From NCBI GenBank assembly GCA_001774495.1, contig MFAE01000002.1:1-40371 (forward strand): a DNA stretch of 40,371 nucleotides, written 5' to 3'. The position numbers and the translations under genes are program-made. The notes under the pieces are model-generated. The model was given only the letters and a program-made list of their open reading frames with translations. It was not told where the DNA came from and did no database searches. This DNA is from Candidatus Campbellbacteria bacterium RIFOXYC2_FULL_35_25. GTDB taxonomy: Bacteria > Patescibacteriota > Minisyncoccia > Phycocordibacterales > UBA12079. Each line of letters begins with the position of its first letter. Position 1 is the first letter of the stretch. Shown piece by piece: positions 16,294 to 24,105 of the stretch.

Positions 16294-16437
16294 GGATTCT
16301 TCCCCCTAGTACTTTGTTTGGATACCATTCCCATTTCCGTTCACAATAATAACCCCGATTTACTTTTCTGTCAATGACAGAAGATAATAACTAAATTAAA
16401 AACCCCTAGTATCCATTAAGAATACTAGGGGTTTTTA

Positions 16438-16563
16438 AAATAATTTCAAATTTGGATGAAGAACGAGGAGTTGAGAAAAAATTTTTAGAGCCTTATTTGT
16501 TATAAGGTGAATAGAAATTTTTTTGAAAGACGACAAAGTTATGCGCCAAATTTGGAATTATTT
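16438..16563 (-). repeat. ~125-bp hairpin element, copy after rpmB
   Basis: Reverse complement matches the architecture of 18591-18716 and 23173-23293 (CGAGGAG...GAGC-stem-GTGA...CGACAAAG). Confidence 0.85.
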
Positions 16564-16803
16564 AATTAGGCCGGCTTTTTTAAGTGTGGCAAAAGCCCCA
16601 TTCTTATTGATAGTCTTAATAGCTTTAGTTGAGATAGTTAGCCTCATTGTTTTGTTTAATTCAGGAATAAAAATCTTCTTTTTTTGTAGGTTAGCTTTCC
16701 TTCTTTTCATCCCAGTGGGATTAAATTTGGTAGCACGAACACGATTGCTGTATCCTCCAGCCATCTTTGTATTTTTTCCTGTTATTGGGCAAGTTTTTGA
16801 CAT
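16558..16803 (-). CDS. rpmB: 50S ribosomal protein L28
   Basis: MSKTCPITGK...KRRKANLQKKK...ISTKAIKTINKNG. Confidence 0.93.
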   Translation of the reverse strand: MSKTCPITGKNTKMAGGYSNRVRATKFNPTGMKRRKANLQKKKIFIPELNKTMRLTISTKAIKTINKNGAFATLKKAGLIK

Positions 16804-16876
16804 AATTAATTTAATTTAAGTGATTGTTATGGTATCATAGGGTTAATTATTTTGCAATAAAAATTTATTTATATTT

Positions 16877-17494
16877 ATGGAAGTTGATTTTATATTTTCA
16901 ATAGTAATACTAATTATGTCGGTTGTGGTACACGAAGTGTCTCATGGATATACTGCCTATCTTTTTGGTGACCCTACCGCAAAGTTAGCGGGTCGACTTA
17001 CTCTTAATCCTTTTAAGCATCTAGATTTGCAGGGTTCGTTAATTATTCCTGCCATCGCTTATTATTTCACAGGTTTTATTTTTGGTTGGGCTAAACCGGT
17101 TCCTTATAATCCTTATAACTTAAAAAATGCAAAAGTTGGTGAGCCGATGGTGGCACTAGCGGGTCCTTTGTCTAATTTTCTTGTGGCTATCATTTTTGGA
17201 GTCCTAATTCGTTTTAGTGGGGAATTGGGTCTTGCCTCGGATTCTTTCATTAAAGCTACTGGCATGATCGTTTTAATTAATTTGGTTTTAGGCCTTTTTA
17301 ATCTAATTCCTATTCCTCCTTTAGATGGTTCAAAAGTACTTTTTGGCATTTTACCTCACAATTTAATAAAAGTTAGATACTTCTTAGAAAAGAATTATAT
17401 TTGGTTAATTTTGTTCTTTATTTTTTTCCTTTGGAAATTCCTTACTCCAGTAATTTCTCTTTTATTTTTCTTGATTACAGGGGTTGGGTTGTAG
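16877..17494 (+). CDS. Site-2 protease family (M50) membrane metalloprotease
   Basis: HEVSHG, ALAGPLSN, FNLIPIPPLDG. Confidence 0.93.
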   Translation: MEVDFIFSIVILIMSVVVHEVSHGYTAYLFGDPTAKLAGRLTLNPFKHLDLQGSLIIPAIAYYFTGFIFGWAKPVPYNPYNLKNAKVGEPMVALAGPLSNFLVAIIFGVLIRFSGELGLASDSFIKATGMIVLINLVLGLFNLIPIPPLDGSKVLFGILPHNLIKVRYFLEKNYIWLILFFIFFLWKFLTPVISLLFFLITGVGL

Positions 17495-17612
17495 CTGGTG
17501 GCTGTAAGCTTAAAAATGTTTGCATTTTGTTTCATAATATAGTAGATTTATAGCTGTTCAGTTTTGGAGTTTTTTCGAAAACTAAGAATCAAGAACTAAA
17601 AAATAAAAAAAG

Positions 17613-18023
17613 ATGTCAACAGTTAATCAATTACTAAAAAAGAGAAGAAAAAAAGATCCTAGAAAACCTAAGGCTATTGCTTTGAGCAAGGGTTTTAATC
17701 TTAAGAAAAATAAACCAACAACTTACCCATCTCCTTTCAAAAGGGGGGTTTGTGTTAAAGTAACTACCAAGACTCCAAAGAAGCCTAACTCAGCAGTTAG
17801 AAAGATTGCTAGAGTTCGTCTGACAAATGGAATGGAGGTAACAGCATATATTCCAGGAATGGGACACACACTTCAAGAGCACTCAGTTGTTATGCTAAGA
17901 GGGGGAAGAGTAAAAGACGTAGGAATTCGTTATACAATTGTCCGCGGAAAATTAGATACAACAGGAGTTGAAAAGAGAAGACAGAGCAGAAGTTTGTACG
18001 GGGCTAAAAAACCAAAGAATTAG
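17613..18023 (+). CDS. rpsL: 30S ribosomal protein S12
   Basis: [23 protein letters not shown]. Confidence 0.98.
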
Positions 18024-18118
18024 TAAGTAGTTGGTAGTGAGTAGTGAGTAGCAAAAAATTTGCAAAGCAAATTTTTTAAAAAGCTGTAAACTGTGAGCTG
18101 TCAGCTGTAAACTTAAAA
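18024..18118. repeat. Heptamer/hairpin element (rpsL-rpsG)
   Basis: 4x NNNGTAG, AAAAAATTTGC-AAA-GCAAATTTTTT, 4x CTGTNAR. Confidence 0.9.
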
Positions 18119-18121
18119 AAT

Positions 18122-18592
18122 ATGAGAAGACCAATAAAAGACAAAAGAAATATTCAACCAGACAGAGTTCATGACTCATTGGTTTTAGAGCGTTTTATAA
18201 ATTATGTTATGTGTGACGGTAAAAAAAGTGTCGCAAGAAAAGTAGTTTATGGTGCTTTAGAAAATATAAAAGAAAAAGCAAAAACAAAAGACCCTATTGA
18301 AGTTTTCAATGGAGCTATAAAAAATGCTGGTCCTTTAATGGAAGTTAAGTCTAGAAGAATCGGAGGAGCTAACTATCAGGTACCTAGAGAAGTTCCAGAA
18401 AAGAGAAGATTAGCCCTTGCTATGAGATGGATTCTTGAGGCAGCTAGAGCAAAAAAAGGATCTTCAATGAGTAAAAGATTGGCTGATGAATTGATTGCTG
18501 CAAATAATAATGAAGGAGAGGTTATAAAGAAGAAAGAGAATGTACACAAGATGGCTGACGCGAACAAAGCTTTTGCTCATTTTGCATGGTAA
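18122..18592 (+). CDS. rpsG: 30S ribosomal protein S7
   Basis: EVKSRRIGGANYQVP, HKMADANKAFAHF. Confidence 0.98.
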   Translation: MRRPIKDKRNIQPDRVHDSLVLERFINYVMCDGKKSVARKVVYGALENIKEKAKTKDPIEVFNGAIKNAGPLMEVKSRRIGGANYQVPREVPEKRRLALAMRWILEAARAKKGSSMSKRLADELIAANNNEGEVIKKKENVHKMADANKAFAHFAW

Positions 18593-18716
18593 AATAATTT
18601 TAAATTTAGAGAAATTCTTTGTCGACTTTGAAAAAAACTCCCTCACAGTATTTAAAATACGGCTCGGGAGTTTTTTTCTTGTCTCCTCGAATTTCATTTA
18701 AATTTAAAGTTATTTT
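18591..18716 (+). repeat. ~125-bp hairpin element, copy after rpsG
   Basis: TAAATTT..CTTTGTCG..TCACAGTATTTAAAATACGGCTC..CTCCTCG..AAATTTA. Confidence 0.85.
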
Positions 18717-18905
18717 TTGTCATGCAAAATATTATTTTTATTTAGGGAGAATTTATTGCTAAAAGCAATAAATTGATATATAGTATTACGCAATTAATCG
18801 TTTTACGATTTTTTTGTTTGGCAACAAAAATTTAAAAATTATTTATAAGAAATTAATAATAGTTTTTTGTTTTTTCTAAAAACTAAAAACTAGCAACTAA
18901 AAACT

Positions 18906-21056
18906 ATGAGCAGAGATTACCCATTGGAAAAAGTTAGAAATATTGGAATTATTGCCCACATTGATGCGGGAAAAACAACTGTGTCCGAAAGAGTTCTTTT
19001 TTACACAGGACTTTCGCATAAAATCGGTGAAGTTCACGAAGGTGAAGCTACTATGGACTGGATGGAACAGGAGAGAGAAAGGGGTATCACAATTACTTCT
19101 GCTGCTGTTACAACATTTTGGACGCCAACTTATGCTACAGGTAATGACTCTTTGAAACATCGTTTTAATATTATCGATACTCCTGGACACGTTGACTTCA
19201 CCGCTGAGGTGGAAAGGTCTCTTAAAGTTTTAGACGGAGGTGTAGTCGTTTTCGACGGTGTAGCCGGAGTAGAATCACAATCAGAAACCGTTTGGAGACA
19301 AGCTGATAAATATAAAGTTCCTAGGATTTGTTTCATCAATAAATTAGATAGAACTGGTGCTTCTTTCGATAGGTCTTTCAAGTCCATTATAGATAGACTA
19401 ACACCTAACGCTGTTAGAGCTCAATTGCCTATAGGAGAAGAGGGAAATCACGAAGGTGTAGTGGATCTTTTAACGATGAAAGCTTACTACTTTGAAGGAA
19501 ATATGGGGATGGATGTTAGGGAAGATGAGATTCCCGCAGACATGAAAGCCGAGGCTGAAAAATTCAGAGGAGAATTTATTGAAAAAATTGTTGAAAACGA
19601 CGAGGCGTTAATGAATGATTATCTAGAAGGGAAAGAAATTCCTCTTGATAAACTAAAAGCGACCTTGAGAAAAGGAGTAATTGCTTTGCAAATAATTCCT
19701 GTTTTTACAGGTTCTGCTCTAAAAAATAAGGGAGTTCAAAAAATGCTAGACGCCGTTGTTGATTATCTTCCTTCTCCACTCGATGTCCCTGCTATTAAAG
19801 GAATCGATCCTAAGACAGATAAAGAAGTTGAAAGACCTTCTGATGACAATGCTCCTTTTGCAGCTTTGGCTTTCAAATTGCAAACAGACCCGTTCGTAGG
19901 ACAATTAACTTTTTTTAGAGTTTATTCAGGAACTGTTGAAGCTGGTTCATACATTTACAATTCAACAACTGGTGAAAAAGAAAGACTAGGAAGAATCGTG
20001 AGAATGCATGCCAACGACAGAGAAGAGGTAAAGAAAGTTTATGCTGGAGAAATTGCAGCCGCTGTTGGTCTAAAAAGTACAAGAACATCAGATACTTTGT
20101 GTGATGAAAACAATCCAGTTATTCTAGAGAAGATTGAATTTATGAAACCTGTTGTGGCCGTAAGAATTGAACCTAAGACTAAGGCTGACCAAGAAAAGAT
20201 GGGGTTAGCTTTGAAGAAACTATCAGATGAAGATCCAACTTTCACAATAAATACAGATGCTGAAACTATGGAAACTATTATTGCTGGTATGGGAGAACTT
20301 CACTTGGAAGTTTTGGTAGACAGAATGAGAAGAGAATTTGGTGTTGAAGCTAATATCGGTAAACCTCAGGTTGCCTATAGAGAAACGATTCAAATACCAT
20401 CTTCTGCCGAAGTCAAATATGTTAAGCAGTCTGGAGGTAAGGGTCAGTATGGTCATGTTAAGATTAGAATTAAACCGTTAGAAAAATTAACAGAAGAAGA
20501 GATAAAGAACCTTCCTAAAAATACTAAGAGATTTGATGGAGGAATAGAATTTGTTAACAGTATTAAAGGAGGAGTTATTCCACAGGAATATATTCCTGCT
20601 GTAGAAAAAGGAATTAAAGAAGGAATGGAAAGAGGGGTTGTGGCTGGTTATAAGATGGTGGATGTTTCAACAGAATTATATGATGGTACTTACCACGACG
20701 TAGACTCATCAGAAATTGCTTTCAAGATTGCTGCATCACAAGCTTTTCAAGAAGCAGCAAGAAAAGCTAACCCAGTTTTACTTGAGCCCATTATGAAAGT
20801 CGAGGTTGTTACCCCAGAAGAATTTATGGGAGACGTAACTGGAAACCTAAGTTCAAAGAGAGGTCAAATTGATTCAATGGACGACAGAGGAGGGAACAGA
20901 GTAGTGAATGCTAAAGTTCCGTTGTCAGAAATGTTTGGGTACACAACTACTTTAAGGTCTATGACAGAAGGAAGAGCTTCTTCAACAATGGAGTTTGACC
21001 ACTATGATGTTGTTCCTGTTAATGTAGCTAAGGAGATAGTTGAGAAGAGGAAATAG
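18906..21056 (+). CDS. fusA: Elongation factor G
   Basis: [29 protein letters not shown]. Confidence 0.99.
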
Positions 21057-21091
21057 AAAGTAGATTTAGTCTTTTTAATTTACAAAAAGTT

Positions 21092-21121
21092 AAAAAAATA
21101 CCGCTCGAGCGGTATTTTTTT
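21092..21121 (+). terminator. Terminator after fusA
   Basis: AAAAAAATACCGC-TCGA-GCGGTATTTTTTT. Confidence 0.8.
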
Positions 21122-21176
21122 TAATCACATTTTTTCTAGTTTTATTTTTTAAAAAAAGTTATAATTCTTTTATAAT

Positions 21177-21458
21177 ATGGAAATAATAAATTTTGATATT
21201 GTAATGCTTGTTGTCATGATTGCCTCTTCCATTTGGGTATTCTTTATGATATCCGGTTATGGGGGAGTCATCGGGACTTCCTTTAAGACTATTGGGTGGG
21301 GGGCTATTTTTTTAGCAGGTTCTCATATATTTGAAGAATTAGCACATAAATTTATTACCTCGGAAATTAGTCAAACTTATGGTTTGTTGTATCACTCCAT
21401 AGAATTAGTTGGTTTTTTGATGATTATTTTTGGGCTTAGGATGTTGGTTAAAAAATAA
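21177..21458 (+). CDS. Small 3-TM membrane protein, paralog 1
   Basis: GYGGVIGTSFKTIGWGA motif shared with the next gene. Confidence 0.75.
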   Translation: MEIINFDIVMLVVMIASSIWVFFMISGYGGVIGTSFKTIGWGAIFLAGSHIFEELAHKFITSEISQTYGLLYHSIELVGFLMIIFGLRMLVKK

Positions 21459-21526
21459 AATTTTTTGTTTCAAATGATTGTTGTTGGTTTTCGAATATTA
21501 ATAGATTATGTTATTATTATAAAATT

Positions 21527-21814
21527 ATGGAAGTTTCTTTCTCAGTAGTTGTAGATTTAATCTTTTTTTCAATTCTTGTTGGTTCATCTCTTTTGCTTTT
21601 TATTATGCTTAGGGGGTACGGAGGCTCAATTGGTAAAAGTTTCGGGATAATTGGATGGGGAGCCCTCGTCTTTGGTTTTGCTTGTATATTAGAAAAATTC
21701 TTGCTCCAATTTTTTGGTTCTTATGGAAGTTTAATTAGTATTTTTAAAAATTTTCTTGATGCCACGGCATTACTTTTAATTTTATACGGATTTAAGTCGT
21801 TTTTAGGTAAATAG
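21527..21814 (+). CDS. Small 3-TM membrane protein, paralog 2
   Basis: GYGGSIGKSFGIIGWGA. Confidence 0.75.
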   Translation: MEVSFSVVVDLIFFSILVGSSLLLFIMLRGYGGSIGKSFGIIGWGALVFGFACILEKFLLQFFGSYGSLISIFKNFLDATALLLILYGFKSFLGK

Positions 21815-21851
21815 ATTTTTTTAGGAATGTTCGGAACTTCTCGAACAATTC

Positions 21852-21879
21852 TTGACTATTATTTATCTTTTGCTATTAT
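21852..21879 (+). promoter_or_regulatory. tuf promoter
   Basis: TTGACT-N16-TATTAT with extended TG. Confidence 0.55.
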
Positions 21880-21973
21880 ATGAGGGTAACGCAGTAGCGT
21901 TTATTTTTATATTTAATCACTTGCGTTAAAAGCGCGGTGTTAAAGTTATTATTAATAATTTAAAAAAAAAATT

Positions 21974-23170
21974 ATGGCAACTGAAGAATATAACAGAGAC
22001 AAGCCTCACGTAAATGTGGGAACCATCGGTCACGTTGACCACGGAAAGACAACTCTTACTGCAGCTATACTGCACGTTCTTAACCTAGCAGGAAACAAGG
22101 TTAAGTTGAGAGGTATTGATGATATTGATAATGCTCCAGAAGAAAAGGAGAGAGGAATTACAATTGCTCTTTCTCACAATGAGTATGAAACAAATGCTAG
22201 ACACTATGCTCATATCGATGCGCCAGGTCACGCAGACTACATCAAGAACATGATTACCGGTGCCGCTCAAATGGACGGTGCGATTTTAGTAGTTGCAGCA
22301 AACGACGGTGCTATGCCACAAACAAGAGAACACATCCTTTTGGCAAAGCAAGTTGGTGTACCTAAGATTATTGTTTTCTTAAACAAGATTGACCTTGTTG
22401 ACGATCCGGAGATGGTAGAATTGGTAGAAGAAGAAGTTAAAGACATGTTGAATCAATATGAATATGATGGAGATAATACTCCTTTCATCAAAGGTTCCGC
22501 TGTTAAAGCTCTTGAGACAACAGCAGTAACAGATGAATGGGCAGTACCAATCCTTGAATTAACAAAACAATTAGATGAATACATCCCTGTTCCTGTAAGA
22601 GATACAGACAAACCTTTCCTTATGCCAGTTGAAGATATTTTCTCAATTGAAGGAAGAGGAACAGTTTGTACTGGAAAGATTGAAAGAGGTATCATAAAAG
22701 TTGGTGAAGAAATTGCTATCGTTGGTATTAAAGACACTGTTAAGACAACAGTTACAGGTATCGAGATGTTCAACAAATCACTTTCAGAAGGACAGGCTGG
22801 GGACAACGCTGGTATTCTTCTAAGAGGAGTTAAGAAAGAAGATATCACAAGAGGACAGGTTCTTGCTAAACCAGGAACTGTTACACCTCATACAGATTTT
22901 GAAGCAGAAGTTTTGGTTCTAAAGAAAGAGGAAGGAGGACGACATACACCATTCTTCTCAGGATACAAACCTCAGTTCTACATCAGAACAACTGACGTTA
23001 CTGGAGAAGTTACTTTGAAAGAAGGTGTTGAAATGGTTATGCCAGGAGATACCGCTGTGTTCAAAGTTAAATTACATTCTCCAATTGCTCTTGAAGAACA
23101 ACAAAGATTTGCTGTTCGTGAAGGAGGGAGAACTGTTGGAGCCGGAGTAGTCACAAAAATCACCGCCTAA
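21974..23170 (+). CDS. tuf: Elongation factor Tu
   Basis: [38 protein letters not shown]. Confidence 0.99.
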
Positions 23171-23172
23171 GC

Positions 23173-23293
23173 AAGATTTCTAAATTTGACTCCTGACTTT
23201 GTCGGTATCAAGAAAATTTATTTCGCCGTATTGAAATACGCCTCAATAAATTTTCTCTCACCTCCTCGTCATGCATTCAAATTTAAAAATCTT
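23173..23293 (+). repeat. ~125-bp hairpin element, copy after tuf
   Basis: TAAATTT..CTTTGTCG..TCGCCGTATTGAAATACGCCTC..CTCCTCG..AAATTTA. Confidence 0.85.
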
Positions 23294-23397
23294 TATCTTT
23301 GCCCAAACTTTTGAAATTTATCGATTTGTCATTTTGCGCCTCATTTGGGACGCAAAAGTGACAGATTGATATAAAAAGAGTATAGTTAAAAAAAATT

Positions 23398-23751
23398 ATG
23401 GAAGAAACAACAAAAACAAAAAAGGTAGATAAGAAAGTTGATATTATTCAAAAACTTAGAATAAGAGTTTTTGCTTATGAGCATAAAATTTTAGACTCAT
23501 CTATAAAGCAAATTATAGATACAGCTTTAAGATTTGACGCTAATATTAGCGGACCGATTCCTTTGCCAACAGAAATAAAGAAATATACCGTTAACCGGTC
23601 TTCTTTTGTTCACAAGGATGCAAGAGAGCAATTTGAAATGAGGGTTCACCGAAGATTAATTGATATTTTGAATCCATCAGCAAAAATAATTGAGGCTCTT
23701 ACGAATCTTAGTTTACCTTCGGGAGTATCTATCGACGTTAAAATAATGTAG
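23398..23751 (+). CDS. rpsJ: 30S ribosomal protein S10
   Basis: GPIPLPT, HKDAREQFEMRVHRRLIDI. Confidence 0.98.
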   Translation: MEETTKTKKVDKKVDIIQKLRIRVFAYEHKILDSSIKQIIDTALRFDANISGPIPLPTEIKKYTVNRSSFVHKDAREQFEMRVHRRLIDILNPSAKIIEALTNLSLPSGVSIDVKIM

Positions 23752-23754
23752 TTT

Positions 23755-23877
23755 TATTTGCCCATTTTTACGTCATCTGCAAAAAATTTTCAATCACAAA
23801 ATTTTCACAATAGGATAACTATTGCTCAAATTTTGTTCAATCAAATTTTTCGCATCTAACCCAAAAATGAACAAATA
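23755..23877 (+). repeat. Related ~123-bp hairpin element after rpsJ
   Basis: Long interrupted inverted repeat with a TCAC-stem-CTC apex and a TCAATC/TCAATC internal loop. Confidence 0.65.
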
Positions 23878-23888
23878 TTGAATTTTAG

Positions 23889-23941
23889 AAATCAGCGTGA
23901 AGTTTTTTAAAACTTTGTTTTAAAAAACTTCACGCTGATTT
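23889..23941. terminator. 25-bp-arm perfect inverted repeat (terminator-like)
   Basis: AAATCAGCGTGAAGTTTTTTAAAAC-TTT-GTTTTAAAAAACTTCACGCTGATTT. Confidence 0.7.
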
Positions 23942-24105
23942 TGTTTTTATAGTCTTTGCGAGCGATAGCGAAGCAATCCAGAAGCAATCGAGAATCATTG
24001 ACAAAGTTTGACTGTTTGTGTATGTTTATTGTGTAATTAGTTCGTTTTTTATGAATAGTGGCAACATCCGTTTAGGATAGCCACACAACAGGGGAGGTTA
24101 GTACC

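Follow-up and report, generated by a model that had tools for sequence, protein, structure and literature searches.

Known since 1990-91, ERIC is in daily use for typing, and RPE-1, a palindromic element of Rickettsia, serves as a textbook example of repeats that generate protein sequence. In the part of the literature compared here, ERIC is described as a 127-bp MITE (a miniature transposable element with inverted repeats) of the Enterobacteriaceae and Vibrionaceae (PMC10969869), and its copies are reported to destabilize the upstream message through RNase E in an orientation-dependent manner (PMC2229807, PMC10969869). Reviews, in the sections drawn upon, treat ERIC and RPE-1 as separate, lineage-specific MITEs and leave the partner enzyme unnamed. 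The present work concerns a family of long hairpins that abut stop codons in Candidatus Campbellbacteria bacterium RIFOXYC2_FULL_35_25, whose 782-kb genome of 35% GC is here called G000; the window is its contig C2 (MFAE01000002.1; 40,371 nucleotides), and G005 denotes a congener. We read these repeats, with a probability of roughly 60%, as a non-autonomous, TA-targeting transposon, i.e., a MITE, that is moved in trans by DDE transposases. It is also likely that the G000 family, ERIC and RPE-1, although described separately, constitute one old family or superfamily. The comparison literature, each source taken in part, consisted of PMC3733652, PMC2229807, PMC3184786, PMC10969869, PMC3116915, PMC11602168, PMC13521548 and 10.64898/2026.09.22.753630; no paper uniting these repeats was found in the literature searched, which did not cover supplements, and the MITE catalog of PMC11602168 may list members.

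The initial annotation had pointed to a hairpin family directly after rpmB, rpsG and tuf, and the motifs and stem pairs that it listed are indeed present there, in three full copies. The first (16435..16565; 106.6 bits) carries its purine-rich, or G-A, strand on the plus strand, such that the mRNA of rpmB (ribosomal protein L28; 16558..16803, minus strand, against the contig's GC skew) holds the pyrimidine strand. This copy overlaps the rpmB stop codon, and a distinct terminator-like hairpin lies just past it (16395..16437, minus strand), so the element sits between the stop codon and the terminator. The second (18590..18718, G-A strand minus; 118.3 bits) starts at the stop codon of rpsG (S7; 18122..18592, plus strand), its pairing reaching about 10 bases into the final rpsG codons, and the element is absent from this site in G005. 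The third (23170..23297, G-A strand minus; 123.3 bits) follows the stop codon of tuf (EF-Tu; 21974..23170, plus strand), and in G005 this site is also occupied, by a diverged copy. Host gene names were verified by NCBIfam, with L28 at 44.6 bits falling under its cut-off of 48.3.

Genome-wide, an iterated profile gave 31 matches at E<1e-5, including 28 full-length copies; after local shuffling of the genome, the best match had E=1.6. The element is a non-coding, multi-copy, imperfect palindrome of about 127 bases that folds end to end, features that fit the MITE class. Identity between G000 copies ranges from 46 to 88% (median 63%), with no pair above 88%. The stem covariation first noted in the window extends to the larger set of 28 copies, where double-sided changes occur at 36 of the 47 pairs, a level reached in none of 500 shuffles; in a control on the same copies, pairing fell from 93.5% to 36-51% when partners were slid. 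Two purine-rich internal loops are conserved on one strand, and the geometry read from their sequence would be that of tandem G-A pairs, as had been proposed for the antisense strand. That strand, opposite the mRNA, is also the better-folding one, with a consensus fold of -48.8 versus -29.2 kcal/mol for the mRNA strand and, copy by copy, an advantage in 27 of 28 when RNA parameters are used and in 28 of 28 when DNA parameters are. Comparison with Rfam matched the element to no described family at gathering score, and 13 loci of other taxa returned just CssrA and t44, both in one E. coli locus. There, CssrA (RF02798; L100:1575-1684) overlaps the ERIC copy of E. coli rpsB in its 3' half.

A fourth hairpin (23752..23881, minus strand) follows rpsJ (S10; 23398..23751, plus strand), and its description as a more distant relative was right in the sense that we read it as a decayed family member. 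The sequence profile does not pick it up. Three progressively broader models, R1, R2 and R3, were built without ERIC, and R3 also without RPE-1; the rpsJ hairpin scores 36 bits with R1 and 23 bits with R3, with which plain terminators reach 26 bits. It retains the rod, the apical G-A module, the strand and the position, with A/T pairing in place of the basal internal loop. Clear members occupy the rpsJ site in two congeners (54.9 and 44.3 bits) and a weak profile match was seen in a third, i.e., in 3 of 16 relatives examined. In G000 and the two congeners the rod and apex are intact and the basal loop has been remodeled differently in each, suggesting that this loop is dispensable for the persistence of a copy.

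The fixed orientation at stop codons is likewise a genome-wide property rather than a random one. Twenty-four of the 28 full copies begin between -30 and +20 bases from the stop codon of a co-oriented open reading frame (ORF) whose mRNA carries the pyrimidine strand (ORFs came from a simple in-house caller, and the hosts include a doubtful one of 73 aa), and the orientations number 24 versus 1 in G000 and 16 versus 1 in G005. The sole opposite case in G000, an ORF antisense to a tRNA, we consider a spurious ORF. Two copies precede an opposite gene, with 4 bases to the start of pnp and 47 to that of topA, two lie at a distance from any gene, and none of the 28 falls within a long ORF beyond the overlap with last codons. 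Further hosts include secA, secD, secF, mreB, recJ, rny, pgk, tkt, rseP, rnhA, rpmG, rplK, rplL and efp (secA, like typA below, was named from sequence). Stop-codon abutment is seen again in the loci of the GTDB scan described below. Targeting to highly expressed genes, as the initial annotation had suggested, was not borne out: codon adaptation, a weak proxy for expression, did not differ between 20 host genes and 429 others (p=0.16), despite 7 of 24 hosts encoding ribosomal proteins or elongation factors. Replichore polarity was also rejected; in G005 orientation does change along with the GC skew, yet 5 of the 28 G000 copies oppose the contig skew, and four of these follow lagging-strand genes (rpmB, rny, typA, efp), so orientation follows the gene and not the replichore. 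A role for the element as terminator was set aside as well, a separate terminator-like hairpin being found after 5 of 28 copies, similar to 69 of 436 background genes.

Occupancy varies between close relatives. Among 458 reciprocal-best gene pairs of G000 and G005, the element is present in both genomes at 3, in G000 only at 19 and in G005 only at 13. With strict filters, R1 gave 0-47 matches per genome over 60 relatives, at least 28 of which were matched; in sets of 150 genomes each, it matched at least 24 from the class and at least 9 from the phylum. Scanning GTDB with a core pattern gave at least 122 stretches, 80 with flanks, and the matches listed include Nitrospira, Rokubacteria/Methylomirabilota, delta-proteobacteria, Acidobacteria, Planctomycetes, Rickettsiales and Patescibacteria. 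Of the 80 flanked stretches, 46 loci were tested with R2 and 44 matched; one pattern match (L179), whose genome gave 0 model matches, is probably due to chance. R2 gave 41 matches in Nitrospira defluvii, and R3 matched 33 of the 121 genomes in the order of G355 and 37 of the 151 in its phylum. Viral contigs held one core-pattern match, and a single query of plasmids gave none. Across phyla the core is conserved and the outer arms are not. Tandem copies nest at element ends. The gene rnhA is followed by three head-to-tail copies, two of them rearranged (G000 C8:30921-31267). Several copies contain a GC-rich palindrome of about 20 bp (CCTGCC...GGCAGG type) at varying positions (G005 C1:179599, 445330 and 452290; L051:2707-2851; L061:2764-2905).

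This cross-phylum range and the relation to ERIC and RPE-1 had escaped the initial annotation. The ERIC set comprised fifteen E. coli K-12 copies, several of which contain the published ERIC primer sequences, as given in part of PMC13521548. With filters off, the best model match fell on the purine strand of ERIC, in 14 of the 15 loci for R1 and in all 15 for both R2 and R3, and the top score climbed from 29 to 37 to 47 bits over the three models (with R3 the ERIC copies score 17-47 bits; other matches in those loci reached at most 12). No reverse-strand ERIC match was listed in these unfiltered searches of the 15 loci, and the alignments pair up both loop modules. ERIC placement is comparable, with a co-oriented stop codon in 5 of 15 copies and an opposite start in 4 of 15, at the same element end; in 2 of 15 the purine strand is on the mRNA, 11-15 bases after the stop. 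Sequence profiles of the element and ERIC did not match in either direction, and neither did blastn in E. coli genomes. For RPE-1, R3 matched a Rickettsia copy (L420) genome-wide on the purine strand with 43.5 bits (E 1.2e-6), and the reading frame of L420 matches TIGR01045 at 42.8 against a cut-off of 30. Of 28 frames run against TIGR01045, two were above cut-off (one being a neighboring gene with an in-frame copy), one was weak and 25 had no match; an in-frame RPE-1 scores 24 bits, on its coding strand. Taken as a whole, the core shared across phyla and the likeness to ERIC and RPE-1 make one old family likely.

The clearest view of the ends comes from young copies in other lineages. In N. 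defluvii, units of about 205 bp have TA at both ends in 16 of 16 cases, mostly in a CTA...TAR context, and in 20 near-identical young copies of two further genomes (G578 and G566) TA was found, by eye, on the left in 20 and on the right in 18; tandem copies in this subfamily have one TA in common. IS5-family elements target YTAR. The N. defluvii unit is a composite, in which the hairpin is joined by an additional left module of 85 bp, and its ends are nearly identical to the TA-flanked inverted ends of a 1.3-kb element of the same genome (L438), which codes for a transposase of the IS5 family (NF033581, 279 bits versus a cut-off of 140) whose frame has an early stop. Among 39 pattern matches in Nitrospira loci, TA marks the end next to the gene in 23 and the hairpin's far end in 4, an asymmetry that fits composites or decay and also a one-sided target.

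On the MITE reading, a DDE transposase acting in trans, IS5-like at least in Nitrospira, would insert the element at TA or YTAR and duplicate the TA. In gene-dense genomes the TA of TAA and TAG stop codons would be among the few gene-sparing sites, and copies would be retained mainly where the weakly folding pyrimidine strand is on the mRNA, orientation thus being filtered by selection on the message. Selection would favor the strongly folding purine strand in the lineage that spreads, where it would probably act as an intermediate in single-stranded form or as a fold that binds protein, and the basal loop would decay after a copy is stranded. In G000 spreading appears to have stopped.

Several results weigh against this reading. 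The outer arms vary widely in G000 and TA is fixed at neither end, so that, with copies only 46-88% identical, TA duplication is not demonstrable there; stop-codon type is uninformative too, TGA being used by few genes (15 of the 436 in the background). Between lineages the arms differ wholly, which simple recognition of terminal inverted repeats leaves unexplained. DDE_Tnp_1, DDE_3 and DDE_Tnp_4 are all unmatched in G000, and although DDE_Tnp_1 occurs in 11 of 61 genomes, none of 12 such loci has element-like ends. The IS5-family element of N. defluvii lacks the core, and since the unit of about 205 bp is a composite, the core may be cargo there. For the link to ERIC, filtered genome-wide searches of E. 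coli K-12 gave no match with any of the three models, only 8 of the 15 ERIC copies exceed the 26 bits reached by the window's AT-rich terminators, and the scores lack an unrelated MITE as control. Neither an IS5-family transposase nor matching ends were found in G000 or its relatives, and no alignable empty site was found in the G000-G005 comparison or in contigs of four sequencing runs. Autonomous partners of the G578/G566 and Patescibacteria subfamilies were not found, half-matches being mostly contig breaks or internal deletions, and viral and metagenome scans for such partners gave none.

An unlikely alternative is that the mobilizer reads the folded, single-stranded core (an HUH/RAYT-like or other REPIN-type nuclease) and cuts at TA, the "inverted repeats" being merely the closing stem and the likeness to IS5 in Nitrospira a later capture. 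This would account for a core kept across phyla while arms are not, for the strand-specific fold and for the nesting of tandem copies at element ends, as well as for apical pairs that barely vary; in an 85-row alignment 79-84 rows keep the same pair at four apical positions, a conservation that, like that of the motifs in the alignment at large, is in part circular, roughly half of the rows having been retrieved by a pattern that requires those pairs. It is countered by the symmetric ends, with TA and terminal inverted repeats, of young copies, and by the absence of any Y1, reverse-transcriptase or transposase domain from the 60 ORFs scanned of 138 neighboring ones. Nor does Y1 gene presence track the element. 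The initial annotation had suggested a REP/MITE-like element and a check for association with RAYT/IS200-type genes; the dispersed, MITE-like character stands, and the RAYT/IS200 association was not supported. The six RAYT-like Y1 transposase genes of G000 (L022-L027; C13:11, C6:2462, C6:20018, C6:114905, C10:24050 and C7:5858) carry their own, unrelated palindromes, none of the six is flanked by the element, and element-rich relatives (G039 with 23 matches, G046 and G060 with 9 each) have no Y1 match. Most of the six are bracketed on both sides by a short, perfect, gene-specific palindrome. Two other candidate partners were rejected, namely a standalone GIY-YIG enzyme, with its single match in a 413-aa frame, and a reverse transcriptase (L309; G000 C8:10561-11172, a 371-aa frame below all NCBIfam cut-offs), which is some 15 kb away from the closest full copy and shows no link to the element.

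It is rather improbable that the copies are instead mainly domesticated RNA elements of 3' untranslated regions, or antisense RNAs, selected by the host to adjust how fast the upstream message decays, as is reported for Yersinia ERIC. The near-fixed orientation at stop codons would be expected of such elements, as would the persistence of some sites (secF, rplK, rpsG) across genera or families, and the orientation-dependent RNase E effect described for ERIC in portions of PMC2229807 and PMC10969869 offers a precedent. However, the better-folding strand is usually not the mRNA strand, sites are mostly species-specific, and the basal loop is lost in stranded copies. On the purine strand G-U outnumbers A-C by 99 to 24, but just by 41 to 23 without four conserved G-U columns, and the apical loops of 145 cores show no GNRA or UNCG enrichment and no signature favoring RNA or DNA. 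A host RNA role can also be accommodated by the MITE reading, as a possible side effect.

Most doubtful is the view that stem covariation is largely mutational, with template switching at quasi-palindromes copying arm onto arm in the absence of selection on the fold: the far arms of several copies do replicate the host gene's final codons (by eye), G005 terminators after rpsG and efp have been extended to longer palindromes that pair with the last codons (by eye), and internal loops are "perfected" in decayed rpsJ copies, yet the process would erase the asymmetric internal loops that persist across phyla and leaves the strand asymmetry unexplained. These observations suggest that template switching is frequent in this genus and may account for part of the covariation score, for which it is a real caveat, since hairpins here extend into flanking codons.

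Other features of the genome may be recorded briefly. The window holds two more long, single-copy hairpins, in the gap between tuf and rpsJ (23305-23373) and after rpsJ (23887-23944), and a short imperfect palindrome at 23951-23990, with relatives in G005 flanks, which we take to resemble CGTC-type REPs. Between fusA and tuf lie two ORFs (21177-21814) for small hydrophobic proteins of 93 and 95 aa with no NCBIfam match, and short tandem repeats of about 7 bases lie upstream of rpsG (18024-18120) and fusA (18875-18905). Elsewhere in G000, ARAGORN reported a tRNA-Ile with a TAT anticodon (C8:49468-49541), which is unusual in bacteria.

A broader and distinctly tentative proposal is that ERIC, RPE-1 and the repeats of Patescibacteria, Nitrospirota, Rokubacteria, delta-proteobacteria, Acidobacteria and Planctomycetota are one ancient folded module, one strand of which would be read by a conserved putative factor during copy-out from single-stranded nucleic acid, with swappable arms that borrow the host's TA-targeting transposase. 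If true, this would supply what is missing for ERIC and RPE, a mechanism of amplification. Two questions, what moves the elements and why the fold of one strand is conserved, become testable through the common core, the common polarity at stop codons and, in a host that is no pathogen, a candidate partner of the IS5 family, and it is the unification of ERIC and RPE-1 together with a testable partner, more than the four hairpins themselves, that gives the finding its weight.

Set against known systems, the element resembles REP and REPIN sequences in forming extragenic hairpins after genes with a conserved single-strand fold, but it is much longer, has no GTAG tag and is accompanied by no element-flanked RAYT. 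Its young N. defluvii units share their TA-flanked inverted repeats with an IS5-family element, which differs in lacking the core and of which no counterpart, in transposase or ends, was found in G000 or its relatives. RPE-1 is longer, at about 150 bp in the part of PMC10969869 consulted, and often lies in frame inside genes, whereas the window copies are extragenic. There is a further likeness to ERIC (ERIC / IRU / RU-1), with which the element shares its length (127 bp), its end-to-end rod, its purine-strand fold, the apical GAG-C...G-TGA module and basal RAGGM/RACGM loop at the same spacing, the end that adjoins stop or start codons and the orientation bias at stop codons. The arms are different, the central stem of ERIC has its own bulges, and TA termini are not fixed in G000; the host range of the element extends far beyond the Enterobacteriaceae and Vibrionaceae given for ERIC in that part of the literature (PMC10969869).

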